A stretch of DNA of 64,000 nucleotides from Podarcis muralis. Its lineage: Eukaryota. The stretch spans positions 30,814,001 through 30,878,000 of the forward strand of contig NC_135660.1 of the NCBI RefSeq assembly GCF_964188315.1, written 5' to 3'. How positions within the stretch are numbered: the first letter of the stretch is position 1; each line of letters starts with the position of its first letter. Shown here one piece after another: positions 8,778-58,481 of the stretch. The notes beneath the pieces are model-generated. The model was not told the DNA's origin. It worked only from the letters and a program-made list of their open reading frames with translations, and ran no database searches. The position numbers and the translations under genes were made by a program.

Positions 8778-9128
8778 ATGGCCTGGGATTCCGATTCGGA
8801 GGATGAAACAGAGGAATCCCAGCCTGCACAGGAGTCCCCGCCTCCAGGGCCGGCTGAACTGGGGCAAGGCCTAGATGCTGAAGAGCCTGCACCTGTGGCA
8901 GTGCATCAGGAGCTGGCCCCAGGTGAAGCCCTTCTGGCCCCAGAGAGGCTTGACGACTCAGTGGCCACAGGTGAGCCTCCTCCAGGGCCCAGTAACCCTT
9001 CGGCCTCTCCTGATCTGCAGAGGCTTAGAGCAGAGAGGCGAAGGGAACTGGTTGCCCCCAGGAGGAGTGCTCGCCTTAAGGCCAGAGGAGGCGGGGCTCC
9101 TGGGGGCCGGGACCGCCCCTGGCCTTAG
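8778..9128 (+). CDS. putative LTR(U3)-encoded 116-aa acidic/Pro-rich peptide with a basic RRSARL-containing C-terminus
   Basis: uninterrupted ATG (4 nt inside the LTR) to TAG: MAWDSDSEDETEE...PSASPDLQRLRAERRRELVAPRRSARLKAR...; analogous decayed ORFs in three other LTRs; expression unproven. Confidence 0.45.
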   Translation: MAWDSDSEDETEESQPAQESPPPGPAELGQGLDAEEPAPVAVHQELAPGEALLAPERLDDSVATGEPPPGPSNPSASPDLQRLRAERRRELVAPRRSARLKARGGGAPGGRDRPWP

Positions 9129-9211
9129 AAGAGGATAAAAGCCCAGTCAGCCCGGCCCCAGGTTGCGGGAGCAACGTCGTTGTTGGCTTCGGACCTTCCT
9201 GCGTGCCTGAT

Positions 9212-9340
9212 CCCTGCTCGGCCTCCTGTTCCTGACTATCCGGTACTCCTGTTCCCTGCTCGGCTTCCTGTTCCTGACTATCCGGTACTCCTGTTCCCTG
9301 CTCGGCCTCCTGTTCCCGACCATCCGGTGTTCCTGTTCCC
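9212..9340 (+). repeat. 42-bp tandem repeat, about 3 copies, inside LTR B
   Basis: unit ccctgctcggcctcctgttcctgactatccggtactcctgtt, near-identical copies with no spacers. Confidence 0.92.
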
Positions 9341-10695
9341 TGCACAGCCTCCTGTTCCAGCGTTCCTGTTCACCGCCCGGCTCTCTGCCTCGGACCTTGC
9401 CCCTCTTCGTGTGGACTTTGCTACACCCAAGGTACCTTACCCCCGGGACCAGCACAAGATTCCTGCATTGCAGGGGATTGGACTAGATGATTCTTTGGGT
9501 CCCTACGAACTCTTCAGTTCTATGATTCCATGGTTGGTCATCAAGATTGGTTGGATGTGATAGAGGCATATAAGGTGATGCATTGCGTCGAGATGGGACT
9601 CTTCTTCCATGCAGGTTCATATGTCATGACCATGGCAGAGGAAGATAGAATAGGGCAGGGCATTGCACTTGGACAAGAATCACATTTTTGGGGGAGTAAC
9701 ATAGAAAAAGGAGATTAATGACAATTTGTGCATATACAATATTCCTTCTCTATCCACATGCAGAAATTTAAATATGGGGAAATTATTCTTAATGCTATTC
9801 CAAACTGAGGAGTGACTGAAATAATAGCATTGTGGTTTCCATGCTTGTTGGAGCTAATGACATGCTGAGCCTCTCTAGAGGTGGGAATGGTTCAATTAAG
9901 ATGTCAGTCTTTCAGCCTACACAAATACCCTCTCCCTGAGCTTTGCTTTTCACCCATCGTTTTTGGTAACAGACAACTAAAAACAATTACACAATCTGTC
10001 CAAGGCAAGAAAAAACAGTGGACAAGTTTCTGCAATGTGGTTTCAGAGCAGGTGGCTTAATCTTACACATAAATAATCATTTCAGCATATACTTCTGATT
10101 ACAGATAATAGGCCTTCTGGTAACTTTAGCTCACTCAGGTGTGGCATCTTGTTCTATGTGTCATAACCTGCCACTTATTCACACTTGCTGGATAATTACT
10201 TCATTGAAAATCAGATTACATGTTGTTTAGATGTCAGAAATTAAAGTGCCAAAAACCCAGGTGAGAGTCAGTTGTGGGTCGCCCGCCAATACTCCCAAGC
10301 TGCAATTATAATTTCTTCTCCTTCGTGTGAAGATCCAGCATGTTTTCTGACAATGCCTTGGTGTATGTGAAACAATAAAGGATTGGGTGAAGATCATCCA
10401 GTTCTAGCAGTCAGTATTTTTAGGATACCCTAAATCTGCCTCAGATTGAATATACTGCAGACAAGCTAAGTTTAGAGAAGTGATGGGCACTCCAGCTCCC
10501 ATCAACCCAAGCCAGCACGGCCAAAGCTCATGTAGTTGTAGGGAAGCAACATCTGGAGGAACACATGTTCCCCATGCCTGGTTTAGAAAGTGGTAACAAG
10601 TTCATGATGTTGTAAGAATGTGAATACAAAAATAAAATGGGAGGGGGGAGTAAGAGAGTTGAAGGAAAAAGGATATCACTTGCAGTTCTATAGAG

Positions 10696-10826
10696 CAGGC
10701 ATAGGCAAACTCGGCCCTCCAGATGTTTTGAGACTACAATTCCCATCATCCCTGACCACTGGTCCTCCTAGGATGATAGGAGTTGTAGTCCCAAAACATC
10801 TGGAGGGCTGAGTTTACCTATGCCTG
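10696..10826. mobile_element. palindromic hAT MITE
   Basis: TIR caggcataggcaaactc / gagtttacctatgcctg; perfect 8-bp TSD ctatagag (10688-10695 / 10827-10834). Confidence 0.95.
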
Positions 10827-12173
10827 CTATAGAGTAAAAATTAGATAATATTTTTCTAAATTTAATTAAAATTTTCTTGTTTTTGCAAGGGTTTTTGATA
10901 GGCCACAGTTTGGCGTGTCCTTGAAACCTGGCAAGCTGGGGTTGATAACTATGGTTTGTTTAAAATAGGTCCATTTCAAATGATGGTTCACGAAGTTGGC
11001 TTGTTCCCACAAACCAGAGTTACAATTAACCACCATTTATGGTTCAGATGTTTAACACTGACCTCTGGTTAATCAAAATGGAAAGCGCAAGTTTACAATC
11101 CATTCCTTGCCACTATGCCAGAGGAGGAGAGTGGAGTGGGCAGGGCACAAGCCCATGGGATGTCTGAACACAATATATTCCAGATCTAGAGGAAGAGAAT
11201 GGGAGCCTCTCTGACTTGCATTGTGGTTACCAGCAGAAGAAGGCTACAAGGAAGTAGCTCTAGAGAACTTGGAGCACCTCAAACTCTGTTGCAGTACTAA
11301 ATTAAATCCACCCAATCATTGCAATTAGATAAGGAACAATTTGCCTGTCGTCCTAACAAAGGTCCAAGGCACCCAAAGACTTTTAAAACAAACACTTGAA
11401 CTATTTGTAACAGTGGTAGAAAGATAAAGTCTCTGAAGACACATCCATCTAACCCACTGATGTTCTGACTAGAGTTTTGCTGAAAACTCTCATCTAATTT
11501 CTGAAACATTTTCTTTACCTGCAGAAAAAGAGATTTCAATCTTTCTGCCTCTTTCTGCTTTAGACTATCTTTATAGTTTTGGTGGATGCAGGTTCGACCT
11601 TAATTTATCATTATGAAATAGCTGTGTGTGGGGGTGTGGGGGGGTGTTTTCCCCCATTAAACATTTATCCAGCATTCTGCAGCCTTCCCAACTGCCCATA
11701 CTTCCTGATCTCAAAAAGCCCCATGGGAAGAGTTCAGACATCTTTCCTTGGGTGTTAATTTAACACTTTTAATGGAAGCCAAATGAGTGGCTACTGAGCA
11801 CCTGAAGTCACAGTGCTTGCTGATTTTCCTTACTTTCCCATTTTTTAACAATACAAAATCACTGATTTAATTAAAAGGTAACAATGAACAATAGGCAGAC
11901 AAACAATAGGCAACATGCCTACCTTCTGCACTTATGGGGGAGGGCAACTGAGGTTATTATGGGGTTTTCAGGAAGTGTAGGCACCCAGGAAGGCTGCAGA
12001 GGGCAGACCATCAGAGGGATAATTTGTGGAATTAAAGAAACGACACCATCAAACATCCATTGGTCATCTCAATCTGAGGCAGGTGCAACAGAAACCCCGC
12101 ACCCCAGCTATCAAAATTTATTTGAAATTCCCTTTTCTCTTTGATAATTGTCAAATTCAATTTATTTTCTCGG

Positions 12174-12419
12174 TACAGTGGTACCTCGGGTTACATACGC
12201 TTCAGGTTACATACGCTTCAGGTTACAGACTCCGCTAACCCAGAAATAGTGCTTCAGGTTAAGAACTTTGCTTCAGGATGAGAACAGAAATCGTGCTCTA
12301 GCGGCACGGCAGCAGCAGAAGGCCCCATTAGCTAAAGTGGTGCTTCAGGTTAAGAACAGTTTCAGGTTAAGTACGGACCTCTGGAACGAATTAAGTACTT
12401 AACCCAAGGTACCACTGTA
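12174..12419 (+). mobile_element. Tigger-like MITE, family 1
   Basis: tacagtggtacctcgggtt ... aacccaaggtaccactgta; TA TSD; very similar to 60303-60548. Confidence 0.95.
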
Positions 12420-13216
12420 CTTGATTGAGAACAGTAAAAAAAATGCAAAAGAATTTTTTGTAACAGCACTAGATCTGAATGTCTAAAATGGTTGCATTTC
12501 ACTTGGAAAGGTTAGAGATACTGTAAGTGTTGTTGAGAAATTCAAGATAAGGTATTGCTTCATCCAAACGCAAGGAAAGATCTTGCTTGATAACCCTAAA
12601 TCCTACAGTAATTGGATCACATAAACTACATAGCAAAGCTTAATGTTGTGCAAATGCTTGTTGTAATTTGATCAGATGAGAACACACACATGCTGGTCAT
12701 CTAGATACAGGGCATGTAGAAGGCAACGGCCACAGTCAAGACTTCGAAGTGGAAAATGTTTGTTGACACAATTAAATGTAAGAAAAATGCCATCCTCCCT
12801 AATCCTGTTATGAGCTGGATTAATTTTGAATATTTTTCTTTAAGCGTTCATATGATCATGGCAGAAAACAGGCTATTTCAAGCAGGGTGTTGAAAGCAGG
12901 AGTGATACATTCCACTGAAGTTGCTACCCCAGTTTTTCCCCGGAACAAGCTGTTGCAATGCACCCTGGATCTCTTTTGCCTGGAAAGGTGAATCATCTAC
13001 CTTGGAACTGTTCTAAAAATATACAGGCCTGGGGAATTTCATTGTCAGTTGATTTCTGCATTTTTTGGGAGACTATGGATGTTTTCAGGCATGACGAGAA
13101 AAAAGCTCATGACCCTTTCCGTCTCACGCTTTCTGCGTCTGTGTTGATGTTGCTAACGCAGGAGAAAAACCTGCAGGGAAGCCTCCTAAAGCAGAATGTA
13201 ACTACATTGTATGAGA

Positions 13217-13456
13217 AATGGACCCAAATTACAAGAAAGAAGATTCCACCTAAACATTAGGAGGAACTTCCTGACAGTAGGAGCTGTTCGACAGTGGAAT
13301 TTGCTGCCAATGAGTGTGGTGGAGTCTCCTTCTTTGGAGGTCTTTAAGCAGAGGCTTGACAACCATATGCCAGGAGTGCTCTGATGGTGTTTCCTGCTTG
13401 GCAGGGGGTTGGACTCGATGGCCCTTGTGGTCTCTTCCAACTCTATGATTCTATGA
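13217..13456 (+). mobile_element. CR1 LINE 3' end
   Basis: aggaacttcctgacagtaggagctgttcgacagtggaa...ggactcgatggcccttgtggtctcttccaactctatgattctatga with the (attctatg) octamer tail. Confidence 0.92.
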
Positions 13457-14184
13457 AATGGAAATGCTGATTTAAATGGCATATTGACTGTCCTGAGGCA
13501 TTTGGTCATGTGTTGCCCATCAGAGGGTGCTACCCACACCCAAAACACATTCCTCCATCAGTTCAGCAACTAATGCCCCATCCTCTGTTGCACAAATGTT
13601 GCACAAAAGCACACGGCTCCATTTTTCTGTCATGCACTTTCCCTCTCTAGAATACATTCTAAGCAGACAGCCTCTCATCCCCGAGATATGGGTGAACACT
13701 GCAAGAGGAATTCAACATTCACAGGCCAGACTTACAGTCAGGGCCAGCTGAGATCTTGCCGAAATCTGAATGAGAACATGAAATCTTGTGGGAGCCCACT
13801 GTTGTAGACACTGCTTGACCCAACCCACGTAAGTGAGGCTCTGACAGGGCATAGGGGCTAGGTGGACATGGCAAGGCGGGCAGCACCTTCCCGTTTTGCC
13901 TCATGAGGTGAAATGGGATACGCCGCCCCTGTTTACACCGCAACCCTATGTGTCTTGCTGAGTTCAATGTAGCATTATCCAAAGTGAGTGCAAAGAGGAC
14001 CACAGCCTTGACCTTTCCTGTCATTTACGCCATGTCTAGACACAGTTAATGCAGGACAAAGCTTGAAAGGAAAATGAGACATACATACTAACCATTTAAG
14101 TTTTACATTTCCGGGTTCAGGGTGCTGAATCAGTGGCTCTGCAGGCCTTCTGGCCCCTGGAATCTCCCCAGGCTAAACTCTTTC

Positions 14185-14383
14185 CACTGGCAGAGGAAGG
14201 GCGCTGCGGTGGGGGCAGTCCGCCCCGGGTGTCATCCCTGTGGGGGGTAACATCACCGTCCTGCCCCCCTGGAATGCTCACTGCAGGCAGCGCCCACCCA
14301 GGATGCTGGGATGCGGGCGGCTAGCCCCGCCCCCAGGTGCACAATATGTGCACCACTCCGGGTGCTGGAGCAACTAGCCACTG
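14185..14383. mobile_element. GC-rich MITE-like element
   Basis: cactggcagagg...ctagccactg termini and isolated high GC/CpG content; TSD not resolved. Confidence 0.45.
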
Positions 14384-16766
14384 CTCTGACTCTTCCTTGG
14401 CTCTTCTTGAGTGTTTTTGCCTGGCTGGAATGTGTCCTTGAACTCTCACAATGCCTCTTTCTTGCCTGGTAGGGGGATGAGGGATGAGGGAGGAGTGTGT
14501 GAGTGTGTGTAGAAATTAGCTTCCTATACAAGCTGGGTTCTTCTGCCCCACCTACCACCAAAGTGCCCCCCCCTCCCACCTCAAGAGGGTTGCTCATAAA
14601 GGAATCCAGCCATTAGGCTGAAGAAGGTTCCTCACCTTACTTTATACATTGATCTATGCATAAGAGAACCTTGGACTTCCCTTGAAGGCCATCGGCCGTC
14701 TCAGAAAGGTTAGGATGTTATTGGTGTAACTCGTTGCCACAAGTCAATGGCAGTACTGATAAGCAGGGATTAGACATGTAATGGTGTTATTTCATGTTCA
14801 TTTTTTAAATGTGTGTTTTATGGGCATTTGTATGAAAAAAACTTAATGAAGAGTGAGTTATGTCCCTACTAAGTGATGACAAAAGGACCTTTACAAAAGT
14901 TAACCATGTTGCAGTTGTAAAAATAAATATGAAACTTCTCTAATGTGTTAATGTTTCGCACTGTTTTTTTCAGTAAGCAAATGGTTCAGAAAGTGAGAGG
15001 AGGAAAGAGCCATTAAATATATTACAATTTAGAGGGTTTTTGCTTTTCCTACATTTTCTTTGTGCCATTTTTATCTTCCCTTTCCACATTTCAAACCTTA
15101 AAAAAGAGACACATTACTTTATACTTATGTGTGAATGATTTCTCTTATAATAATTTGCTAAAATTATGTAAATTAGACACAAGCTTTCTTTTCCAGTCTC
15201 TTTGTATGCTGAGAAATTAGGAATACGGATGTCTCAACAGTTTTGTAACTTTCTTTTTAACAAGACGTGCTACAAGGACTCTGAAATCAGCTCTTAGTTT
15301 ATCTGAGACACATACCGTGTTTTTCCAGTACAGCCTCTCTGCAGGACATTGTTTTATAGTTTAACATGTAACATTTCAATTAGAGATGATCCCAGCTCAG
15401 TCCAGATTGGACATGCTCAATCTCAAGTAAACAAAAGATCTTTGGTCCTATGTTGTGCTTGTGGTTTGTGTTTTAAGAATCAAACTTTTCACTGAAAGCC
15501 ATACTGCCTATTTGGGAACTCTGCAGCCGATTCTTAATATACTGCATTTGAAAGAACTGCTGTGTAACAAGGTTTGTTGAGCCTTGACAATGGTGCTCCT
15601 TCAACTTGCCTGAGCAACAATATGGAAGATCTGCTACCTTTGGGCTGTATCTGCTTTGCCTACAGTTTTGTGATTATCCATCTCAAACCTGCTCCTTCAT
15701 TGACGCGTTCCTAGATACTGGATACCTTGGGCAAAGACTGAGGGTGCAATCCAAACTTCTACACCACGGGGGCTGTGCAGAATGGCAAGGCCAGCGCAAC
15801 ACTCTGCTGTTCATGGCAGCTGGGACAGAAGGTGGTGGACAGGAAATTGTTGTGCCAGGCTGGAGGTAGGGTGGTGATTGGGCCCTTATTGGACAGCAAT
15901 GAGACAGGCTCAGGGTTCAATGGATCTCAGCTTAGCTCTGGCTGTTCCCCACCTTTGGGGCCACTTCCACTGACTGCTGCAGATGACACTGTTAGAGTTG
16001 TTCAGTGGAATCCCTGATCTAGACCTTGTGTAGAAATAATGAGCTTTCCACTCCAAGAATCAGTTTCAAAGCTTCGCTGCAGAACAGTCTTAAAACCTAA
16101 CTTAAACATTGCAAAATAACAAAGTAACATATTGCAAACAAGCAACATGGCTCAGTCGCGTATGTCTTTTATGCAGTTCAGCAAACTTTCCTCTCTCGGG
16201 TCCCAGAGACAGAGCCTAAGATTGTTCATCACTGCAGAGATTCTTTGCTACTGCTGCTGCTAGACATCTCTGACTTCTGAGTCATCAGGAAGTTTAGCTC
16301 ACTGAAATGGGGAAAAACACCACTTTCGCCCAGAGTGGAACCTCTTGCTTAAGGTAAATGTCTCTTTACAGCATTCCAAGTACAATGCATTCCAAGACAG
16401 CTTTCTATACATTAAACTTATAACTTTAACAGGCAGTCCCACCCACACATTTGGTGGGTGTAGGGGGATGTGCCACCCAATTGGAGCCCCAAAACCTGGT
16501 ACAAGGTGGTGGTAGATTTCTTGGTTAATCAAATAGCTGCCTGATCTGCATATGCAACTTCAAACTTGGAGCTATTTCAGTTCATTCGTTCCTTCCTTCC
16601 ATGGCTTGAATTCTCTGCAAATGTTAAAAATGCCCAGATCTTGTCAAGGGAGGGCACAATTCCTTTGTAATTCTGCTTTTCATTCAATACAAAACAAATG
16701 TCCAAGAGTAACAAATGGGTATGAATGAAGTTTGTTCTCATTACATAATTCTTTCATCCACTCATT

Positions 16767-17320
16767 TGTTGCAGAGTGGGCGGGTGAAGTGAAGGACATG
16801 AGGCAGGAGTTGATAATGCAGGTGAGCTGCACACAGGTGAGCTGCAAGCAAGCTGCCGGCCAGCTCTGTGGAGGCTCATTTTATTGACACAATATGCAAA
16901 CTCAGGCAGATAGATTTTGGGCTGTGACCTTTACACATCTTCCAGTCCCAAGATCGGGGGGTGGTACAAAGTTATTTTGGCACCTGTTTCCACCGCGCCA
17001 TTTCCCCCTTGCACAGTGTATGACGAAGGAGACAAAGGTTACAGACAGGACACCGCAGACTACTTGAGACCGCAAAAGGTTAGACAGAGGGCATGATGTT
17101 CAGACAGCTGTGACTTTATCTGTGAGGGGGAGTGTGCTCTGCACTCCAAGGTCACACGTGCAGGCAGGCTGAAGCTGCCTGCGGGTGGGGAGTGTGCTCT
17201 AGACCCAGCGATCATTCCTACAGGCGGGATTACCTTTGTCTTGCCAGCAGCAGAGGTTCTTGGTGTGTCTACCATTTAGAGGATGCCACTGTCTTCTTCT
17301 ACCCAGGATGTCATGAATGT
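16767..17320 (-). mobile_element. probable ERV-like solo LTR
   Basis: minus strand ends ...ctctgcaaca; AATAAA on minus at 16880-16885; duplicated motifs caggtgagctgca and ggggagtgtgctct; right boundary and TSD not resolved. Confidence 0.35.
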
Positions 17321-17377
17321 CCAGGGTGCCCTGCCACTATGAGGGGATAATCATCCTTCTCTCTCTCTCCCCCTCTA

Positions 17378-17413
17378 TCTTCTTCTTCTTCTTCTTCTTC
17401 TTCTTCTTCTTCT

Positions 17414-17448
<35 letters not shown>

Positions 17449-17457
17449 TTCTTCTTC
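17378..17457. repeat. (TTC)n microsatellite
   Basis: direct read, one interruption. Confidence 0.98.
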
Positions 17458-19000
17458 CACCATTTACATGTCTCTGTGCCCTGGAACAGCACAGCATCTA
17501 GGGCCTTATAGAGAAAGAACAGTTGCTTCAAGTAGTCAAAGGTACCAGAAAAATAGCTTCAAAGATAGGATTCTGTCTACATAAGTCAAGTAACTTTGCT
17601 AACACTTTGACAGCCCTTCTCCAAGTGAGGTGCAACAAACAGCTATGGGAGAGAGGGCCTTTTTGGTGGTGGTGACCTGGCTGTTGAATGCTCTCCTCAG
17701 AGATGGTGGCCTGGTGCCTAATTTGGTACCAGGCAACCTTTTTCATTTCCTAGGCCTTTTAATCCAATTTAGCTTTAAGCTGCTTTTGTTCTGTGACTTG
17801 CGTTGTTACATATATGGATGCTACTGTTTTATTTTTATTGAACTGCAGATTGTTTTATTTCTTATCATGAGGCACGCTGAGAGCTTTGCTATAAGATGGC
17901 CTAAGAATACTGTAAATAAATTAATATATAATTAAATTGAAAGGTTACATAAGTTCAAACATTTAATTGGATTTTTGTGTCGTATTTCCCGTAACAGACT
18001 AACACAGTCAGCCTTCTCAAAGAAGGTTTATATTTCCTAATTAAGACGTAAGATATTGAATAGGTGTGTGCTCTATACCATAATGTGGAAGAAGACTGCC
18101 CTCTGGTGTCTATATGCACAACAACTATGGAAATGAGCACACCCAAGGTTTGTACGTAGAGAACTTTCTCTTTAAAGAAGAGCTGATTTGTTTTACTCCA
18201 TATTTTTCCAGATTACATGTTGGACATGTTGGATTGTTGTTTTATGCCATGGTATTTTACAGATTTTCCCTGCAGATCTTATCCTAATGAGTTAGTTTTT
18301 TTAATACTCTACCACACCCAGGTATTTTGTTTCATATGGGGGTGTATTTTCCTCTGGGTTGAAGAAGGATTGCTAAAATTTGCCTGGGTCTATGATTGCT
18401 GCAATATAGCAAGGTGAGAATACATTACTTTTGGGGGCGGGTCAGCACTTTGATTTAAACAGCAAATTTAAATAAACTTTTATATATGTCATAAAAAGCA
18501 AAACCCGCACTTAAGTTATTAAGAGCCCTGAGCTAATGAGTGAAATTAATTTTAGCTGCGTTTTCAGTTCTCAAAAAAGTAATTTGTGCACAAATAAAAT
18601 CCTGCTGTGAGCTCACATTTCTGAGCGATTTGAAATACACCGCTGTGGAAAAATATGTTATTGGCACATTCATCATAGATCTGAGCTCATTATTTCAAGG
18701 TTTGACAAGCTCCTGGTTGCTAGTTTAACAGGAAGCAGAGCCTTAATCATGTCAGTAGTGTTAAGGGTCCTTGTCCTGTTAGATTTGTGATGGTTTAATG
18801 TGCAGGTTAATTTTCAAAGGCCATAAAAATACATATAATTTTTACAGAGATTTAAAACTGCCCTGAGATTTAATAGTGCAAAACCTAGTTAATGTGTATG
18901 TTAAAATAGTGAGGGTTGTATAAACAGATGAAGTATAGGAGTCCTAATCACTCCCTATATTAGCAAAATTCATCTGCATGTGATGACTATGAAATAAAAC

Positions 19001-19782
19001 TAATAATAATAATAATAATTTATTATTTATACCCTGCTCATTTGGCTAGGCTCCCAGCAGAATATTAAAAACACGATAAAACAACAAACATTAAAACTTC
19101 CCTAAACAGGGCTGCCTTCAGATGTCTTCTAAAAATCAGATAGTCGTTTATTTCCTTGACATCTGATGGGAGGGTGCCACTACTGAGAAGGCTCTCTGCC
19201 TGGTTCCCTATAGCTTCACTTGTCGCAAGGAGGGAACCACCAAAAGGCCCTCGGAGCTGGATCTCAATGTCCGGACAGAATGATGGGGGTGGAGAAGCTC
19301 CTTCAGGTATACTGGGCCGAGGCTATTTAGGGCTTTAAAGGTCAGCACCAACACTTTGAATTGTGCTCAGAAACATACTGGGAGCCAATGTAGGTCTTTC
19401 AGGACTGGTGTTATATGGTCTTGTTGGCCACTTGTTGACCAGTCTAGCTGCCGCATTCTGGATTAGTTGTAGTTTCCACGTTACCTTCAAAGGTAGCCCC
19501 ACACAGAGTGCATTGCAGTAATGCAAGCGGGAATTAACCAGAGCATGCACCACTCTGGTGATACAGTTCACGGGCAGGTAGGGTCTCAGCCTGCGTACCA
19601 GGTGGAGTTGGTAGACAGCTGCCCTGGATACAGAATTGACCTGCGCCTCCATGGACAGCTGTGAGTCCAAAATGACTCCCAGGCTGCACACCTGGTCCTT
19701 CAGGGGCACAGTTACCCCATTCTGGACCAGGGAGTCCTCCACACCTGCCCACCCCCTGTCGCCCCAAAACAGTACTTCTGTA
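19001..19782 (-). mobile_element. L2 LINE 3' portion (5'-truncated) with (att)n tail
   Basis: ORF 19335-19817 contains LGVILDSQLSMEAQVNSVSRAAVYQLHLVRRLRPYL...HALVNSRLHYCNALCVGLPLKVTWKLQLIQNAAARLV, typical L2 ORF2 C-terminus. Confidence 0.95.
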
Positions 19783-20116
19783 CATCCAGTGTGCCCACAC
19801 CAACAGTTACTAGCCATGATGGTTAGGTTCTACCTTCACTGTCAGAGACATTATACCTCTGAATACCAGGTGGGCAGTGCCTTTGTGCTCATGTCTTGCT
19901 TGTGGGCTTTGGGTAGCCACAGTGAGAACATTGTCCTGATCCATCAGCCTTGTTCAATGCTATTATATTCTGAGGTAAAGGAAGCAGGGTGGGCTAAATT
20001 ATCTGTCAATGGCTAGGAATTTGCAGGGAAATGGTGTGCAATAATATTTTGGTACGCACTCTGTTCTTCTGATTATGAATTCTTCTAACTTATTTTAATA
20101 TTACATTTTAAAGGTG

Positions 20117-20118
<2 letters not shown>

Positions 20119-20164
<46 letters not shown>
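20119..20164. repeat. (AAT)n microsatellite
   Basis: direct read. Confidence 0.98.
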
Positions 20165-20165
<1 letters not shown>

Positions 20166-47039: not shown

Positions 47040-47349
47040 ATTTCTCTCATGTCATCTCTTACCTGTCTTTTCTCTGGAGCAAAAAGTCCCAAACAGAGGT
47101 ACCTTTCCTTGATGATTTTGATTGCTTTCTGCAACTCTATGATATCCTTGTTGAGGTGAGGTAACCATTACATCAACACTTGTATCTCACAGAATACATT
47201 GAACATGCAAGTATTCAAATCATAAACCCCGTATACAAGTCCACTAAGATGGGGAGACCAATGTGGCACCTTCAAGTTGCTATTGGGCTCCATCTCCCAT
47301 ATTTTCCAGGCAGCACGACCAATGATCAGGGAAGACAGAACTTGCAATT

Positions 47350-47487
47350 CAGGTGCAGGGAACCTTTGGCCCTCCATATGTTGCTGAACTACAAATCCCA
47401 TCAGCTCCAGCTAGCAAGGGCAATGGCCAAGGATGATGGGAGTTGTAGTTCAGCAACATATGGAAGGCCAAAGGTTCCTGACACTTG
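47350..47487. mobile_element. palindromic hAT MITE
   Basis: inverted arms agggaacctttggccctccatatgttgctgaactaca / tgtagttcagcaacatatggaaggccaaaggttcct. Confidence 0.85.
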
Positions 47488-48991
47488 TTGTAATGCTACA
47501 AACATCTGGACTATTGGTCATGCTTGCTGGTGCAATGGGAGTTGTAGCCCACAAAACCCAGAGAGTACCATGTTGGCTTTCCCTACTCTACATTATACAT
47601 CTTTCATAAAGGGTTGCTCTTTTCAATACACTCGTGTCATTAAAATGTCCATAGCTGCTGTTTCAATGGGTTTCACTAAGGCTGAACATTTTCAGAAGGG
47701 GGAAATAAATGCAACAAATATGAAAAGTAAATGACAAATTGATTTATAGGAAGCCTTGATGAACTTATTAAGCATGCCACAAAAAAATTATTACACATTA
47801 TTAATGTCTGGTTTTTCTTCTAAAAAAAACTTTATGCCATATGACTAATATCTGTTTAGAATACCAAAATAGTGTGACTAATTTTTTTTTAAAGACTTGT
47901 ATCTCATGAAATATATCTGCTTAATTTCCCCCCACTTCCCAGTTTCTTTGTTTGGGATTACTGCATTAGTATTTATCACACAGAGAGCAAATTCCATTCC
48001 ATGCAAAGCTTTCCTCTGTAACAGAAGAAAATAAAGTAACACGTGGCAAAAAATAAAATAATAAAGTAAAAAAGGAATGATGAAAATCAAAACAGGTTTA
48101 TCTCTAGGGGTTGTTACTTGGGAATCAAGCAAGGAAAAAACAGGCTATTTGTTTTGATTTATATTGTTGTGAATTTGCTGTCTGATTACTGTTGAATGGG
48201 TGTATCATTATGGTTTTGCCTAAAGTGATTCTGGGTGGAAGGCAGAGATCTGATACAAAATAAACTTCACGTTCTTTAATAGCCATGGCCTCAACAGGCA
48301 ATTTGTCTGCAGGGCTGTGGGGTGGGGTCTGAGACTAGTGCTTGGCAGATCCTGCAAGAAAAACAGCTGGAAAAGACTGGGAGAAGTTGCTCCCATACTG
48401 TCCACTTTGTGTGGAAGTGACATCCTTCATTCCCTCAGTTTTTGCAAAGAATCCAGATGAGGTCATTGCCAACCCATTACATTTCACTGTTGTCTATGTG
48501 TGTTTTGTTGCAATTTCGCCCAATTTGAAACACAATTGCAGTGCCAGCCAGCCCACTACAGAATGACAAAATATAAGTGAGGCTTTCAGGGCTATTGTGT
48601 CTTCATAAGTTTTCTCTTTGTCACTTTTGCCCCTGTCGTTGCTTCCTGTTCATTGGGGACACAGCATTACTGAATTGCCCCTTAATTAATTAGTTCCTGT
48701 TCCCCCCAATATTATTTTGGGGGGTGCTTTAATTACTGTTTCCTCTTTAATGTCTACTCTTTATTTTATTTCTAATTCAAATAAAACTATTTTGCACTAA
48801 GCAGAAAATAATAGAATAGGAAATTATCTTCCTCCTCCACTGGCCCAATCTAGACTACAAGGAACTGATGGATTTAGGGGCAATTCAGATTAACATTGTG
48901 GGCATGCTCAGTAGAAAGCAATAAGAGACAGAAACCCAGTAAACATTATGGAAATATATTTTTTCACTGAGATGGGTAGTGCTGAGCAACA

Positions 48992-49735
48992 TGTAACATT
49001 ATAAGAAGTGGGTAAGATTGGACAGCCACAACACCCAATTGGTAGGTCCCTCGATGCTGGGTTCAATCTGGCCAATGGGGCACAGTCCAAATGGATTGAG
49101 GGACCTTTATATATCCATGCACAGGACCTAGAGCTTCCTCTTTCGGCTCGTGCATTCGGAACACCTGCCCACCTCTCCCTACTTTTAGGACAATTTTGCG
49201 ATTGAGCTTGCTATGCCGTCGTGTGTCGTCTGTTGTTGGGACAGGGGCACGGCAGGAATTTTCTCCACTTGGCTGATTGGCTGTTGCCATTTGGGTTTTC
49301 ATCTGCCATGTAGCAAATCGTCACAACTTGTAAGGTTGCAGATAGGCTCTGGTTCAGGTGACAAGGCTGGGAGAATGGTCTCGCAATCCCTATGTGAAGG
49401 GTATTCCGTTAAAGGAATCCAGGGTCTCAACTTGATTAGGTCAACCCCTGAGAAGGGGTTGTGCCCATGCCGAGTCCAGGGGGGCATCTGGGTGGCGAAC
49501 ATAGTCTGTTCCCGGCTGTTTGCCTACCCAGGTGTTCACTCTTGGCTGACCTATGCTGGTGCCCTGGGTCAGCGCTGCCTGCAAGGGTGTAGGGAGCTAG
49601 TCAAACCAGAGCCTATGCAACTACTCACCTTCTGTAAAGTTGTGGCCTAAATTCTGTCAAAAACCAAAACTAAAATTTGAGTCAAGTGTGTCTTTATTTA
49701 GGGGGGAGGTCTCTGGGTCTGAACATGCAATAACA
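48992..49735 (+). mobile_element. solo LTR, family C
   Basis: colinear with 45961-46756 (gccacaacacccaattggtagg ... tttatttaggggggaggtctctgg); ends ataaca; 5' boundary approximate. Confidence 0.8.
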
Positions 49736-52294
49736 GCCCAGGAATAACCACCTCCTTAGCAGATTTTCTGCTAAGTAAAGCACGGAGCCATTTAGCTCAC
49801 ATCAGACTGGCAACTTCTTTCTGGCACAGATCATTCCTAGCCCTGCATCCTGATCATTTTTAATGGAAGGTACTAGGTTTTACATGCAGCTCCTATGCTA
49901 CAGCTTGTTAAAAGCGAGCAAGCCCCTTTTGAAAATAATAGTGTTCCATTATAAATACAGCGATACATTTAACTTAAGCATGTGATGTTGTGATCAAAGC
50001 TTTCTTAACCTGTGTTATCTGAAATATCCCAAATTTTCAGGCCTGGGTTATATCCTATGTGGAGTGGCATGGCTGCCATTGCCCTGTGGTTGTTTCCATG
50101 CCACTTCCGCTGTCCATACAGATAAAAAAGAGCAACAAAAGGTTTTGTATTCTATAGCACTATCCTGTTGCGTGTCGATTGCACATTGCCCAGACCTCAT
50201 CATTAGGAACAAAATTACTTAGTGGTTGCTGTTAACTGGATAGTCTCTTGGTCATTTTATGCAGTGATGACAGGCTTTTGCAAAGTAGGCTTCCATTTTG
50301 TTTAATTTTTATTCTTCCCCATCAGAGGCGACAAAAATAATAACTGTGCATATGTGTGTGCACACAAGTGCACCTGGAAACCAGGTAAGTCAACAGCTCT
50401 AATCAGTCCACACCTGAAAGCTTCACAAAGAAACTGCAAAGAAGCACTTTTAGAAGTAGGAAGAAAGCAGGGAAAACATCAGAGTATACAGTGCGCTGGG
50501 AGGAATGGTGTCAGCTTCTCTGGAATAAATGAGAGTGCAAATGGTGTTCCTAGTGGAGAGCGTTCCTAATGTTGAAGCCGCCATGATTAAGACGGATTGT
50601 GTGGTTATGTACCACAGTAGTACTGATAAGCCCCTGATACAGTAAGCAGGGAGGAATGAGGGGATGCTGGCAAATGCATGTAAATGAGGCTTAATAGTAT
50701 CACCAGACTCAGAACTGGAAAAACTTCATCTGAAGCACAGTAAGCAGCATTTCAGAGCCGGGTTTCAAAATGTTCTGGGAAGTATTTACAGGATTACTAT
50801 ATAGCAGCAATAAGTTTCTGGAAGTATTTGGAGCAGAGCCATAAGAATAATAAAAGATCCAGAAAGCATCTCATATATGTAAATTCTGCATGGAAATATT
50901 TGGAGAGGAAAACATCAAGAGAGAATGTACTGCTCCTTATAAATATTTAAAGGGTGTTGAAAAGAGAGAAGAGAACCATTGTTCAAAATATCTCCTGGGG
51001 ATAGGCAAGTAACAGTGGGTTTTAAATATGTGAAGGTCAGTTTAGGAAAATTGCATAACTATAGCACTATTGTAATAGTGGAAGGAGACGGCTGAACTTT
51101 CTTCCTTGGAAGTTTTCAATAGAGCAATGTGAACAGGTATATCTTGAGGATGCTTTCGATCAGGGTTAAGCAACATGATTTCCTCCTGATGCTGTTGAAC
51201 TACTACTTTCATCATCCCCAGCCAGCATGGCCAGCAATCAGGCATGATCATAAGCTGTAGTTGAACTCGGATCTGGGAGATCAGTGCCAGAGGAACCCCC
51301 ACTTCCTGGTTGCTAAAGATTCTTTCTACCACTAAGTCACTGATAGGCTGAGATACGGCAATCTTACTGCTCTTGTTACTTGCCTTAACCAGAACTCTGA
51401 TATTTCAAATAATGCTCCTCCCATTCCCCACTTTGTTTTTTTTTTTTTTTTTTTTTTGCAGGGAGAGTATCCAGTGGGAAACTGTTCAGAATTGTTTCAT
51501 ACATTCCAATAAGCATTAAAACCTGCTCGTGCAAATGGCAAGCTCACATGAGCAAAGTTATGATGGATTTGTTTTGATGGTTTTGACTCTGTGGCGAATC
51601 AACAAAAGATAACCAGGATAATTAGATTGCTACAGTATGTTGTATTTAGAGCTGCCTAGGAACATACTCCGTAAGTTGAATTGATTCAAAATGCAGCTGC
51701 CAGCCATATGTTAACTGGAGCCCACAGGCCTGATCGGGTATTATGCCACCTTTATTGGCTACGTAAAAGTTTCATTTATTTGTTCATTTTTTTAAAGAAA
51801 AGCAAAGAAAATCACCTTGCAATTCTAGACATAGTTACTAGTAAATAAGCTCAATTGAACCCATTAGGACTTACTTTTGACTTAAAATACATAGGATCAA
51901 GCTGTAATACAGGATCATGCTGTTAACTTGATTGCACTATTGTGAGGTTGATTTATATTCTGACAGTCACTTTGGGGCATTCCCTCCCCCCCCCCAATGG
52001 AAAATGTAGGATAAAAATACTTTGAAATAAATGAACTGCAGAAAGTAGCATTGGGAGATTTTTGTTTGCTAGAACATGCTTGAAACCTATTATAATAAGG
52101 ATCTGTTTTAAGTGTATTTTAAGCACAAAATCTGTTTATTTTATTTTATAATAGCAATAGTAATTAAAGAAAGAAACACCAATGTAATGAAAATGACTAG
52201 AATGCAATCATAGAACGTCTTTTGGGATTAGAAAATAAAGCCACAAGTTGCTTTTTTCTCACTGCAGAAGTCAAGCTGCACTACGTCACACAAA

Positions 52295-52557
52295 TACCGT
52301 ATTTTTCTCTCTATAAGACACACCAGACCATAAGACACACCTAGTTTTTGGAGGAGGAAAACAAGAAAAGAATTATTCTGAATCCCAGAAGCCAGAACAG
52401 CAAGAGGGATCACTGTGCAGAGAAAGCAGCGATCCCTCTTGCTGTTCTGGCTTCTGGGATAGCTGCGCAGCCTGCATTTGCTCCATAAGACGCACACACA
52501 TTTCCACTTACTTTTTAGGAGGGAAAAAGTGAGACTTATAGAGCAAAAAATACGGTA
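52295..52557 (+). mobile_element. Tc1/mariner-pogo MITE (CCGTA-type TIR) with internal hairpin
   Basis: taccgtatttttctctctataag ... cttatagagcaaaaaatacggta; TA TSD; perfect 30-bp internal inverted repeat 52382-52411 / 52431-52460. Confidence 0.93.
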
Positions 52558-53634
52558 CTTCCTCTGACTTTGCACAGCCCACCTGAGTGGACCATTTGCA
52601 TGAGAAGACTTGAACAGTGCAGTCATGTGCACTGTTGTGTTCAATGGAAGCTGCTCCCAAATAAATGTGTTTAGGATTGCAGCCCCACGCTCATTAGGAT
52701 GCAGGTACTAGCAGCCAATTACAATCCCTTCATGCACACATTCTGCTAAGTTTGCAAAGATAATAGATTGTTTCTGTTGCCACATTGATTAATTCAGAGT
52801 TTTCCTCACACCCACACAAACACTGGATCTAGTGACTAACAACCTGATTGTCATCTTAATTTTATTAACTCTCTCCTATCTAGCAGAATATCACCTTTGA
52901 CAGATTTGTTTAGCAGAGTATTACCTCTTCCCTGCTTTCCTTTTAGACCAGCTATTTAATTCTTCTTTAGCTAAGCCAAAAATGGAAGGCTGACGTGCCG
53001 GCCAGTATGCCACAAATTGATCCATAACTCTGCATCTGGCCTCTGCTAGTTCCACATCTTCATTCCACAGATTCCTAACCTTTGTGAAGAAGAACAAGAT
53101 CGATTCCTTGATACTTTCATGCACAGCTGGAGATGGTAGCATTTCTTACTGTTTGTCATTGGCTGCAGAATAAGCTAGCTGGCTGTAGAGACATTGGGCT
53201 TTTATTTATCATTTATTTCAAATATTTATATCCTGCTTTTCCAGTTCATGGGATACTCAAAGCACCTTACCACGAAATGCTGAAAACAATAATCAGGTCA
53301 GATAACTAAAAAGCCATTCATAAAAAGGGCACAGCAGATTCAAGGAGCTAGATCAGGTGGTTATTCTTCAAAGCACTCTTGTGCAAAGAATATAACGACA
53401 GCAAAGCCTAATAATTTTCATTTGTTAAATGACCCGCTATATGACACTGACGTTTGTGATGGATTTTAATGCTCCTTGCTTGTCGTTTGCAGACTTGGAT
53501 CAATAAAAAGGTTTCTAGCCTTTTGATAGCAGCAGATGTAATCTTGAACAACCATAAACAATGCCTGGTCAAATAAGTGGTGACATCAGGGGGTGGGGAA
53601 TACTTGGAAGACAAAGAGAAAATAAAGCAGGTTC

Positions 53635-54044
53635 TACCGTATTTTTCGCTCTATAAGACGCACCTGGCCATAAGATGCACTTAGTTTTAGAGGAGGAGAA
53701 CAAGAAAAGAAAATTCTCTCCCTCTCTGCACAGTGCCCCTTCAGCGAAGTGGCAGGAGAAACGGAGCCCCTTCCATTTCTCCTCCCGCTTCGCTGAAGGG
53801 GCGCTGTGCAGAGAGGGAAAGCTGTGCAGTGCCTCTCCAGCAAAGCAAAGCCAGGAGAGCAAGAGGGGTTGGTGCGCACTGATCCCTCTTGCTTTTCTGG
53901 CTTCAGCAAAAGCAACATAAAGCCTCCAGAGCATTGCTTTTCGCTGAAGCCATGGAGCCTGCATTCGCTCCATAAGACGCACACACATTTCCCCTTACAT
54001 TTTAGGAGGGGGAAAGTGCGTCTTATAGAGTGAAAAATACGGTA
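53635..54044 (+). mobile_element. Tc1/mariner-pogo MITE, longer relative of 52295
   Basis: taccgtatttttcgctctataagacg ... cgtcttatagagtgaaaaatacggta; shared subterminal blocks; two internal hairpins. Confidence 0.93.
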
Positions 54045-54929
54045 TATCAGTCTTCTCTAAGCTGGTGCCCTCCAAATGTGTTAGACTCCAACTCTTATCT
54101 TCCTTACCTAACGTGGGCAATGACCAGGGAAGTTGAGAGCTGAAGTTCAACAAAATCTGGAGAGCAACAGTTATGTACCTCTTGTATAAACTGTAAAGAT
54201 CAACAGATGATATTCTAGCTATATCTACTGATGAGTGTATGATAGCTGCAAGATATGATTTGTACCCAGCTTTGGGAAGTAGCCCATTTCAGAGCCACTC
54301 TGAGTCTTTCCAATTTGACTCATTATTTGGGACTAAATTATATATGTTAAGAATATTCACTATAATAGAGTCTAAAATTGCTGTATTCCCACCCCCACCC
54401 CCTTTTGCTGAAGTGGATAATATTTGCATGCATCAATTAAGCTTGTCAGTTTGTAGGCAGATACATCATGAGGTACTTATACAGGGCATCTTCAAAACTT
54501 TGCCTTGTTTTTCTACAAAATAAAAAGTCTGTTATAGTTTATACCATAATTGGATGCAATTTGCAGGGGATGAAGCCTGCCAAATTTCCGAATAATAGTT
54601 GAAAAGCTCATCCACCTCTCCAGCCCCTCTCTGCATATTCCCTTTGTCAGTTTGGTTTCACTTTTCTATAGAAGACTAAGGAGCAACCTTGATCCTACTT
54701 GAGATTCTTTGTTAATGGCGCAATCCAACTCAGGCATGCCAAAAACTGCCCCCAAAGCACCCCTATCCACCTTGAAACCTGGGAGATACACAGAGCTGAT
54801 GCACACCCCTACCGAATACCCTTTGGTTTGCTTCAAAGCCATTTGGTTGGGGGTTTTTTAAAGCTAGTCTTCCCTCCCTTAAGAGTTCATTTTGTAATAC
54901 TCCTGAGGAAAGCTAGAATAAAAGCTAAG

Positions 54930-54992
54930 CAGCTGACAATGGCTACTAGCCATTATGGTTATGTTCTATCTCCGCTGTCAGAGGTGGCAATA

Positions 54993-55043
<51 letters not shown>

Positions 55044-55470
55044 TTTTATTTATATCCCGCCCTCCCCGGCCAAGACCAGGCTCAGGGGTGGCTAACATCA
55101 AATATATAATACATTAAAACATAAGATCAAACAATTGATTGAAATACAGCTTAAAATCACATTAAAATCAGAATAAAATCAGATGGCAACCCACGAATTA
55201 TAGCTGTAACTATGGAGTTGGGAACATTAAGTGCTCACCAGGCCCAGCTATTTGTGCTGGTCTCATATGAGCCGGCTGGAGGAGCCCCTTACATGCAAGG
55301 TCTTGTAAAAACCTCTGTATGCCTCTGACTTTTAGCTGATGGGAAAGACAGGTAGGCAGAGGGCTGTTGTGCTCATATGCAGTTTGCAGGCTTCCCACAG
55401 GGATCTGTTTGACCACTGTGAGAACAGGATGCCATTGGCTCGATCCAGGAAGCTTGTCTTATGTTCTTAC
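54930..55470 (+). mobile_element. CR1 3' end (54930-54988 + 55317-55470), split by an L2 3' fragment
   Basis: aatggctactagccattatggttatg...gtcagaggtggca | gtatgcctctga...gaccactgtgagaacaggatgc...tcttatgttctta. Confidence 0.7.
54989..55316 (-). mobile_element. L2-type 3' end with expanded (AAT)n tail (54989-55043)
   Basis: tttatatcccgccctccccggcc...ggctcagggg tail signature next to the microsatellite. Confidence 0.65.
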
Positions 55471-55707
55471 GATGCATGCACATCTCCCACAGCCTCCTCA
55501 AGCAAGAAAGTAAAACAAAGCAACCTCTAATATTTAAGAAGGGAAAAGGTGGCAACTGATGATGAGGTGGACTCTGCTGAGATGTCTTTCTAACCAAGTT
55601 GGAAACGATGTTCTTAAGTGTGCTGAAAAGAAGAACGAGGTGTAGTTCCATCTGCCTCACAAATTGAATTGAGCAGAGGGAAATACCAGTGCCATGCTCC
55701 CAAAGTC

Positions 55708-55956
55708 CTGGGTAGGCAAACTAAGGCCCAGGGGCTGGATCCGGCCCAATCGCCTTCTAAATCTGGCCCAGGGACGGTCAGGGAATCAACGTGTTTTTAC
55801 ATGAGTAGAATGTGTCCTTTTATTTAAAATGCATCTCTGGGTTATTTTGGGGGCATAGGAATTTGTTCATTTCCCCCCAAAAAATATAGTCCAGCCCCCC
55901 ACAAGGTCTGAGGGACAGTGGACCGGTCCCCTGCTGAAAAAGTTTGCTGACCACTG
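55708..55956. mobile_element. hAT-type MITE
   Basis: ctgggtaggcaaactaaggccc ... aaaagtttgctgaccactg termini; TSD not resolved. Confidence 0.7.
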
Positions 55957-57205
55957 TGGCCCAAGTCATCATTTCCTTCTGGGAAATATGCACATAGTAT
56001 TCTCTGGCTCTCCCAGTTCTGTTCGGGAAGCAGAGAAAACTACAAATCTCATGTTCCCTGGCAGGAAGCGATGGCACCTGAGCAAGCTCTAGAGCATAAT
56101 GTTTGGTTAAGGAGAAGCCCGTGTGCTGTCTCTGTACCAAACGTTTTCCATTGCTTGTTGTTTCCTCACATATTCTTAAAGTAGGGTTTTTGTTTTTGCT
56201 GGACACAGGTTTTTCAGGAAAGGTCAACTGCAGAAGGGGTGAAAACCATTTGTAGCTACTATTTATCTGCATTAAAAGTTCGCTGGTTTTTAAAAATGTA
56301 ATTCATGCACAAGGTGAAAGACAGGTGATTAGTCTACTGAACTGCTTTAATTGGTGAACTACCTTAGCCCATAATGCAAAACTAACAACACTTAAATTGG
56401 AAATGAAAGTGTACACCATTGTAAATACTATATACAGTGCATAATTAAAACTGTAAAGGGTGTAGTGACATTCACATTTATTTTACAGAACTGTGGAGAA
56501 GGCTAGTATTGTACTATTTTTCTCAAATAAATATTTCAGAGATCATTTTGCAGTTTTCTTTTAAAACTGCTATCTTTCTTTTTCTATATTTTATAGTTTG
56601 ACCAACTTTCTCTTTGTGCATCATGTGAAGAGCCATGATGTTATCATCTGTGCATTTTAATAATAAAAACCCATCAAGCAAACATAAGTAATGACTGAAG
56701 ATGCGACCCAATATTCCACATGAAGTTTCAATATGAGTTGCTTCGTTTCTAACATTCAATTTAAAAAATAAATAAATTCATACGTGTGGCCATGGTGCAA
56801 TATCTTTTTCTATTCTCACTCATGCATCTGACTGCTGAGCCAGTACCAACCGCATTTCTTGGAATTCTTAATCTACTGTATTTTAGTATACACTGATCTG
56901 CTTCTTGCTATGACTACAAATCAGAACCTCTATTTTTATCTGAACAGATTGTGATGGAGATACATAAATATGCTTTGTTGGATACTGTCAGCATCTCGAG
57001 TGCTACGATTTGTTATGCCATTGTACACTGGGTTACAAGTTGATCCCACTAACCCCTCAAATATTTCTCAGTGGTGGTTGGTGGACTCTGGATCTGGTAG
57101 GGCAACTAGGCAGCACCTAACAGGCAGGGCCAGAGGAGAGTAGTTACAAGGTGCCAAACAGAACTGTTCATAAACAACCAGACCTAACCCAAGCCCAAAT
57201 TTGTC

Positions 57206-57402
57206 TACCTAGGTTCCACCATATTCATCAGTGTCCCCATTGATGCTGAGCTGGACAAGTGCATTGGCAAGGCAGCTAGGGCAATGGCTTGCCTCTCTAA
57301 AAAGGATATGGCACAATGCAATGCTAATGTCCAATACCTATATGAAAGTCTACCAGGCTTGCAAACTAAGCACACTGCTTTATGGAAGTGAGCTGTGGGC
57401 AA
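57206..57402 (+). mobile_element. RTE-clade LINE RT fragment
   Basis: YLGSTI..IDAELDKCIGKAARAMACLSK / VYQACKLSTLLYGSELWA (one frameshift), the RTE RT C-terminal motifs. Confidence 0.82.
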
Positions 57403-57557
57403 TGTCCTGAACCACAGGGTACCTGGCAAGGTGTACACAATTCCATAGCAGATTCTCATGCTTGGTCTGGCAGGCCAACTGGTCCAAAGTCCAGTCAGAA
57501 CAGGTTCCCGCCTCTGCCTGATTCAGGGGTCAGGGCATCCGGAGGTCAGGTCCACAC

Positions 57558-58066
57558 TGTCAGGGGCTGGACTGAGGAGGAATGGTGGGGACTGCCCTCC
57601 CTTCTCCTGAACCTTCCTGAGAACAGGAGGGCAGTATAGATTTAGAACAGTGGTTTGCAGAAGGGCATAGTTCAGAGGCTGCAGAGGGCAGAAGCTGGGA
57701 AATATTGGAAGAGGGACAGCAGGAAGAAAGAGCACCAGGGGAGAGACAGAGGACAGACTCATTGTCCTTGGAAAGCATTCCTGACCCCCCTTCACCCAGG
57801 ACCAGACAGGCATTGAGGATAGTAGAACAGAGAGCTCAGTGGCAGAAGGCTCAGATTAGCCAATGCAGGACTGACATGGAATAGGGGAGATGAAGGGGAG
57901 GTGGGACTTTACAAGGAGCAAGGCTATTTCTATAGAGAGATCGCACTCCTTTGTCTCTCGCTCTGATTATTGACTGAACTAATTGGTAAGAACTCTTCCT
58001 TTTTGTATCTGCTTCTTTGCTGCCACCAGGGGAGGGATCTGATTCCCTGAAGCCTGAAGCCTGACA
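57558..58066 (+). mobile_element. solo LTR, family E (509 bp)
   Basis: perfect 7-bp TIR tgtcagg / cctgaca; decayed 5-bp TSD cacac / cgcat; homologous to 30867. Confidence 0.88.
57559..57884 (+). pseudogene. decayed LTR-encoded acidic ORF (family E)
   Basis: VRGWTEEEWWG / EPS*EQEGSIDLEQWFAEGHSSEAAEGRSWEILEEGQQEE...IPDPPSPRTRQALRIVEQRAQ; one frameshift; the TGA is TGG (Trp) in the 30867 copy. Confidence 0.45.
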
Positions 58067-58290
58067 CGCATTAGCACAGACCAGAAGAGCTCCTGGAACA
58101 TCCAAGCTGTGGCCCAACAAGGGCAGAAGTTGACCAGACACAGAACCTCAGCCCTGCTTCCCTTTTATATCTTGCATGCAGATTGCAGCATCTGAGCTTG
58201 ATGAGGCATGGGACCCTTACCTTTCCTGAGCCTACTCCAGCTGAGGAATCACACACCTCCTCCCAGAGCTAGCAAGCCCCACCTGGCCAG

Positions 58291-58481
58291 CTAGGGAGCT
58301 GGGCTGTGAGCTCTTGCCTGCCTCAGCCTCCTACAGCACCGCTCCTGCTGCTCCCTATACCTCAGAGCCCACTGTGTTTGTGGAGACAGGGGCCCCTCTG
58401 GCTCTGATGATAGGTCCTGCTGCTCTGGTTCCTGTGCACTGACCCCATTTCCTCGCCATCCTCCATTGCCCAGTTGCAACA
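58291..58481 (-). pseudogene. decayed LTR-encoded ORF (family D)
   Basis: NWAMEDGEEM / QEPEQQDLSSEPEGPLSPQTQWALRYREQQERCCRRLRQAR*, one apparent frameshift; upstream of the TATA box. Confidence 0.42.

Follow-up and report, generated by a model that had tools for sequence, protein, structure and literature searches.

The open reading frame at the start of a family B long terminal repeat (LTR) in a 64,000-nucleotide stretch of the Podarcis muralis genome (NC_135660.1, forward-strand positions 30,814,001 to 30,878,000; hereafter the window, numbered from its first nucleotide) represents the last 116 residues of Pol, i.e., the C-terminal tail of the integrase, and not a separate microprotein. Frames at the start of LTR families D and E, which are also present in the window, likely represent the same kind of integrase tail, and this assignment is firmer for E than for D. 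Together with a likely function of the tail as a disordered chromatin tether for the integration complex, these statements form an overall interpretation that we consider probable. An earlier note on this DNA had proposed a recurrent accessory microprotein encoded by all three families in the unique 3' region (U3) of the LTR.

The family B element in the window is a solo LTR of 683 bp with TG...CA ends located at positions 8774–9456 of the forward strand. It starts at 8774 and not at 8778, as had been assumed earlier, and is flanked at both ends by the 5-bp target duplication AGATT. The LTR belongs to a young Ty3/Gypsy chromovirus, full-length relatives of which feature gag, protease, reverse transcriptase (RT), RNase H, integrase and chromodomain sequences. 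Its frame (8778–9128) is intact from the ATG at 8778 over 116 codons to the stop codon at 9126–9128 and forms, in 3' LTRs, the in-frame C-terminal tail of Pol/integrase. A TATA-like box (9134–9140) is located directly after this stop codon, followed by the self-primer at 9165–9174, which represents the start of R and can pair over 10 nt with the primer binding site that follows 5' LTRs. Since the stop codon precedes both the TATA-like box and the self-primer marking the RNA start, the frame lies in U3, confirming this part of the earlier description. Further features on the same strand are an SP cap followed by a predicted basic helix (SPDLQRLRAERRREL, 9006–9053; helix at model residues 152–166), which resembles the C-terminal peptide of murine leukemia virus (MLV) p12, the HMGN-like arginine motif RRSARL (9060–9077), which was retained in both B subfamilies, and tandem repeats of 42 nt in R/U5 (9192–9358).

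A first-look search of the genome with the B U3 sequence yielded 1562 candidates. All 40 scored matches were identical to the window copy; many matches were paired approximately 5 kb apart, and they were distributed over many contigs. The two LTRs of a copy differed by 0–1 bases in six of six copies compared, and family B is a very young Ty3/Gypsy chromovirus. One natural copy encodes gag and subsequently pol with protease, RT, RNase H, integrase, SH3 and chromodomain; the Pfam domains RT, RNase H, integrase, SH3 and Chromo (PF00385, E = 4.7e-15) are all encoded in the frame that enters the LTR. The chromodomain is positioned at the integrase C-terminus upstream of the polypurine tract, and in all 13 3' LTRs examined the order chromodomain, polypurine tract, 3' LTR was free of stop codons, with a linker of 19 residues between chromodomain and LTR. 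Upstream of the LTR, the frame was open for 381 to 500+ codons at these 13 loci and for 694–1452 codons in eight of eight two-LTR copies, the two sets partly overlapping. Because no stop codon separates the chromodomain from the LTR frame in full-length B elements, this frame is not separate from pol, and the read-through translation from the 3' LTR considered in the earlier note was borne out at the level of the frame. Moreover, 10 nt of complementarity between the element's own RNA start and the primer binding site downstream of the 5' LTR indicate self-priming. In a phylogenetic tree without named members such as sushi-ichi and Amn-san, B clustered with frog and unnamed chromoviruses (support 92/88).

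A second B subfamily differs by an in-frame gap of six residues. Pol entries of P. muralis in UniRef (P0001, P0033, P0038) already terminate in the B tail. Likewise, UniRef100_A0A670IJD3 and its relatives ('Gypsy retrotransposon integrase-like protein 1', Podarcis muralis) are 99% identical over chromodomain and tail, with the tail as predicted C-terminus. The sequence was thus already annotated, albeit automatically and without any domain or function for the tail, which also had no match in Pfam, PDB or Atlas. Sparse RNA reads of a related sample (runs X23 and X24) covered the internal region of one B element (L033:648–5710) in nearly uniform orientation, as would be expected if B was transcribed at a low level in the sense direction in that sample. 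A splice joint into U3 was not listed among 189, 171 and 56 RNA reads of the related sample, at a depth mostly below 5 and therefore with low power. As a side observation, the P. muralis UniRef entry P0002 is a gene model joining a B-type LTR frame to gag.

Extension of pol into the LTR was also observed in sister chromovirus families. The sister set comprised the 30 best chromovirus SH3 matches, 17 elements that were chosen partly for long open frames and are biased towards open copies, and a few others. In this set, 43 distinct chromodomain–LTR junctions were obtained, 34 of which showed the same phase and 27 of which were also open into the LTR; four loci yielded no junction. Complete sister tails comprise approximately 63–118 residues (210 in one family) and are net acidic at first and basic in the last third. 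The ratio of nonsynonymous to synonymous substitution rates (dN/dS) of the LTR-coded tail was 0.25–0.48 in nine of 11 pairs and saturated in the remaining two, as calculated for related pairs by a simple method without transition correction. Accordingly, sister-family tails are under purifying selection. A self-priming match of 9–11 nt was found in 11 sister elements, and most sister families carry AGG where B has ATG. Support for a single clade of tail-bearing families was 63/54, by which a single origin is neither shown nor rejected. In one chromovirus family (L256 and L257; also L101 and L114), pol ends directly behind the chromodomain and does not reach the polypurine tract, so that this family represents a natural tail-less control.

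At their ends, the tails of L136, L141, L121, L125, L117, L139, L119 and L167 carry an Arg-rich block, then two hydrophobic residues and finally CW or SW, and two groups among the Arg-rich-ending tails aligned at 94.6% probability. Furthermore, a single 30-Mb contig (C20), which may be a sex chromosome, harbors 22 of the 30 top-ranking chromovirus SH3 matches. Predicted Pol proteins of frogs in UniRef (P0003, P0004) likewise extend well beyond the chromodomain.

Family D is represented in the window by an old solo LTR on the reverse strand (57403–58481), which, compared with its relatives, lacks an internal segment close to its 5' end and is split by a family E solo LTR on the forward strand (57558–58066). 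Since the E LTR is nested inside the D LTR, E inserted after D, in agreement with identities to the window copies of approximately 89% for E versus 83% for D. The frame of the nested E copy is broken by a frameshift and a stop codon. A second E LTR (30867–31221, forward strand) contains several breaks and deletions and runs into an assembly gap, a run of N at 31222–31441. The peptide pieces quoted in the earlier note for D and E are real, yet they do not share one frame in the window D copy, nor in either window E copy, where stop codons also occur; only at the family level were D and E found to be open in the phase of B. In the commonest codons of D (108 alignment rows), this phase contained no stop in the first 100 codons versus five and five in the other frames, and in those of E (81 rows) one stop in the first 109 codons versus seven and six. 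Both frames begin in the same phase as B relative to the terminal TG. Codon 4 encodes Trp in B, in 31 of 40 D rows and in 67 of 74 E rows; at the position of the B start codon, ATG was present in 29 of 48 D rows and Arg in 67 of 77 E rows.

Subfamily-linked variants of E were synonymous in 37 of 74 cases versus 19.0 expected (p<1e-5). This excess was confined to the tail frame, the other frames showing 6 versus 17.7 and 12 versus 18.2 expected, and the E frame is under frame-specific purifying selection. The selection signal thus seen in the sister families and E was not recovered for D, for which the controlled test was uninformative at 49 rows and negative at 108. A looser test favoring selection in D (36:61 vs. 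51:279) was set aside, as it did not control for transitions. Shared indels of D were in frame in two of two cases at 49 rows and in three of nine at 108 rows, among them the two most frequent.

D and E share an 18-column segment of the form SP...ALR..EQ (hhalign E = 2e-4), the score of which was reached by none of 1000 shuffles in either direction. In the window it corresponds to PLSPQTQWALRYREQQ in D (58345–58392, reverse strand) and to PPSPRTRQALRIVEQR in E (57786–57833, forward strand), the latter representing the beginning of the predicted basic helix. Among copies for which an end was found, a 5-bp target duplication, exact or with one mismatch, was present in 16 of 22 E and eight of 11 D copies. 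A self-primer-like motif, RGAGCAAY, was detected behind the frame in 45 of 81 E rows. Sushi-type elements feature the attachment motifs TGTYANR...CNTNACA (PMC3601003), which E, by eye, fits at both ends and D at the 5' end only. Among candidates for internal regions of D and E, pattern matches to polypurine tracts and binding sites turned out to be chance neighbors, unrelated repeats or parts of another chromovirus family, a chromodomain near one E copy was part of another element that has LTRs of its own, and long open frames from protein searches led to no internal genes. The seven database relatives of E are short fragments or one gene model. The SPARC gene model of P. muralis (UniRef P0026) includes a piece of the E frame; P0026 and P0002 are likely prediction artefacts or exonised LTRs.

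Regarding function, published nucleosome-binding cores read RRSARLSA in HMGN, RRSARIAT in Dot5 and RRSSRLTS in Dsup, and all three motif arginines matter in Dot5 (PMC13347269). The B motif, RRSARLKA, contains the RRSARL core with its three arginines in both subfamilies. Exact RRSARL occurred in 11 of 100,000 residue shuffles of B and the SPxxxRLR pattern of B in 172 of 100,000, both having been chosen post hoc. For MLV p12, the C-terminal chromatin tether is DPSPMASRLRGRREPPY (PMC6021111, PMC9040877). Structure models of B and E, of low overall confidence (predicted template modeling score ~0.3), showed disorder and one helix right after SP, from which a tail with a flexible acidic spacer, a stretch rich in Pro and a single SP-capped basic helix is predicted.

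Based on these features, the tail would presumably remain on the integrase after proteolysis and would hold the integration complex onto nucleosomes as a disordered tether, a role that, judged by sequence, is likely. In B, RRSARL would engage the H2A-H2B acidic patch as an arginine anchor, thereby supplementing the histone-tail contact of the chromodomain; the chances of this step are rated as about even. The SP site might permit control by phosphorylation, as reported for MLV p12. Any binding by D and E, which do not possess RRSxRL, would involve the basic helix. Solo LTRs would carry the tail code as a passenger, because every LTR copies U3. They are probably not expression cassettes, unless read from a host promoter, since the frame lies upstream of their own RNA start.

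Several results weigh against this interpretation. B did not align with D or E (probability <1%), and 622 and 491 of 1000 shuffles, respectively, scored at least as well. Because B aligns to neither, it has in common with D and E only the phase, Trp at codon 4, the acidic-to-basic charge order and the SP-capped helix, so that the recurrent peptide described previously holds for D and E and not for B. Likewise, of the RRSxRL motif attributed to all three families, only the B occurrence stands. The complete motif was found in none of 49 D rows, in which the S-x-R-L positions are common (37, 45 and 46 of 49) and Arg occupies the first two positions in four and six rows; RRSxRL was absent from E, in which the pattern R.S.RL occurred in one of 81 rows. 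At 108 rows, no selection signal was detected for D (6 synonymous variants of 21 versus 5.5 expected, p=0.48). In E, a stop is the commonest state at codon 21 (33% of rows), and a C run of variable length near codon 13 leaves 22 rows one base short, 19 rows matching the reference; across 87 tests, no link between this one-base deficit and subfamily variants was detected (best p=0.003). The self-primer-like motif of E and B was present in one of 49 D rows. Gag or pol was not found beside any of the 108 D or 81 E copies, all of which look solo, and four junction patterns identified no full-length D or E element; the chromovirus class of D and E is therefore an inference. In addition, frames as long as that of B were open in 577 of 20,000 resampled U3 sequences, the dN/dS method applied to the sister tails is a simple one, and the tail is not essential to the chromovirus group, since one family lacks it.

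As main rival to the tether role, the tail could be a part of the integrase that functions as a nuclear localization signal (NLS) or as a general nucleic-acid-binding or solubility spacer, the RRSARL motif and the p12 likeness having arisen convergently from an Arg-rich composition. This explanation is rated as rather doubtful. It would account for the observations that the tails of different families share charge order and mostly not sequence, and that their dN/dS is only moderately low; moreover, basic integrase segments of plant chromoviruses were interpreted as possible NLS (PMC3605345). The self-primer is located inside or adjoining the frame end in sister families and, therefore, DNA-level constraint overlaps coding. 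However, the rarity of exact RRSARL in shuffled B tails, its retention in both subfamilies and the restriction of the synonymous excess of E to one frame argue against this explanation.

Alternatively, D and E could be LTRs of another class, i.e., of an endogenous retrovirus or a non-chromovirus Gypsy element, their frame being a gene of its own or the terminal part of a different gene, and only B would carry an integrase tail. In line with this, no internal region was found for either family, B cannot be aligned to D or E, the attachment motif fits D at its 5' end only, and no Pol-fused E relative was detected among the seven matches in 1.84 billion representatives or among longer proteins. 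On the other hand, D and E share with B the phase from the terminal TG and the 5-bp duplication, and E features the self-primer-like motif, the attachment motifs and no start codon. On balance, the other-class explanation is judged unlikely, and an integrase tail is preferred for D and E.

Retroviral U3 accessory genes such as sag of mouse mammary tumor virus (MMTV) and nef of human immunodeficiency virus (HIV) have their own start, a stop-bounded frame separate from pol and a spliced subgenomic RNA. These precedents, an ATG in B as well as in 29 of 48 D rows, and the database gene model P0002, which is predicted to begin at this ATG, would suit a separate accessory microprotein translated from the ATG at LTR position 5 via a spliced or internally started RNA, as the earlier note had suggested. 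Differing from sag and nef, the B frame is continuous with pol, without an intervening stop codon, and E has no Met; AGG occupies the ATG position in E and most sister families, and no splice joint was listed in the RNA reads (low power). The ATG is probably incidental, because it falls within TGTYANR, the motif for integrase attachment (PMC3601003). A separate microprotein is therefore considered improbable. The weakest alternative, chance products of purine-rich, GC-rich LTR DNA, would agree with the 2.9% of resampled B U3 sequences open that long and with the missing selection signal of D, but continuity with pol, the fixed phase across families, dN/dS below 0.5 and the frame-specific synonymous excess of E refute it for B, E and the sister families, confine it to D and make it a most implausible explanation.

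In one sister clade, a different candidate host-binding motif was identified between chromodomain and LTR, namely a helix followed by an acidic Ser/Thr linker and FxGF. Ten of 13 representatives contain two such motifs in tandem (L139:5568–5849, L141:5466–5744, L136:2004–2276 on the reverse strand, L121, L125, L108, L119, L116, L113 and L106) and three contain one (L117, L102 and L167); shuffling yielded p values of 0.0005–0.0125, and one copy reads MEGF. Since the carrier families form one clade (100/99), the motifs represent one origin and not ten. FxGF was absent from the 19-residue linker of B and was not seen in the open D and E frames, and the FxGF linkers had no match in PDB or Atlas. 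TND-interacting motifs with FxGF represent the ligand type of LEDGF/HRP2 (PMC9987994, bioRxiv 10.1101/624023), and the sister linkers fit this published definition in sequence. Furthermore, of the aromatic cage residues described for the chromodomain (PMC3605345), Y-W-Y is, by eye, kept in B (L033), and the first and third are missing in the FxGF clade (L117, L139, L141, L136, L121, L119, L167), which appears to have lost two of three cage aromatics. It is tentatively proposed, as a possibility short of probable, that the partly LTR-coded integrase end of lizard chromoviruses could be a swappable host-mimic platform: B would dock on the acidic patch via an HMGN-type anchor beside an intact chromodomain, and the sister clade, having lost two cage aromatics, would have gained tandem FxGF motifs recruiting LEDGF/HRP2. 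If true, the sister clade would, by directly mimicking ligands of the host, arrive at transcribed genes in an HIV-like manner.

To our knowledge, insertion-site choice of vertebrate Gypsy elements is largely untested. The tails offer short, synthesizable candidate motifs with known host partners, namely the nucleosome acidic patch and LEDGF/HRP2, and the families are young and abundant, making binding and insertion bias directly testable. Moreover, where a solo LTR begins with an open reading frame, this can be an orphaned integrase end, and coding constraint then shapes thousands of genomic LTRs. In the portions of the literature covered, no LTR-encoded integrase tail was described in reptiles and no HMGN-like or FxGF motif in a retrotransposon integrase; Repbase, Dfam, supplements and subscription literature, which may already note the overlap, lay outside this search.

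Comparison with known systems places the individual features of the tail in context. RRSARL of B corresponds to the first six residues of the HMGN/Dsup/Dot5-type motif, including counterparts of the three arginines that bind the acidic patch there, and is located in predicted disorder; however, B continues with KA instead of SA, and the motif resides on a retrotransposon integrase and is absent from D and E. B shares the SPxxxRLR pattern with MLV p12, for which a role in tying the integration complex to nucleosomes was proposed, whereas p12 is released from the Gag of a gammaretrovirus by cleavage and homology to B is not demonstrated. The helix, acidic Ser/Thr linker and FxGF of the sister families, mostly present twice, resemble TND-interacting motifs, but are located upstream of the LTR and not in B, D or E, and the known ligands are host proteins; for lentiviral integrase, the FxGF motif is not described in the relevant sections of the cited sources (PMC9987994, 10.1101/624023).

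Self-priming is a mark of the Tf1/sushi group (bioRxiv 10.1101/2022.12.06.519325). Like B, chromoviruses of this group, including sushi-ichi and Amn-san, feature a chromodomain integrase, a self-priming site and overlapping gag/pol frames (10.1101/2022.12.06.519325, PMC4131045), but an LTR-encoded integrase tail is undescribed in the accessible parts of these two sources, and one family analyzed here is indeed without a tail. The closest parallel is provided by plant CRM elements of group A, in which pol runs on in frame into the 3' LTR, and the portion coded there forms the integrase C-terminus with the CR motif, a putative targeting domain proposed to guide integration (PMC3059260, PMC3605345). 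In Beta Bingo elements, which possess a chromodomain, the frame also enters the LTR. Since plant CRM elements code a targeting domain in the 3' LTR, an LTR-coded integrase tail is a known kind of arrangement. In CRM elements, however, the CR motif replaces the chromodomain and priming relies on tRNA-Met, whereas B has a chromodomain before the tail, is self-priming and resides in a lizard host. Here, the LTR-coded tail is added on top of the chromodomain, in a vertebrate self-priming lineage.

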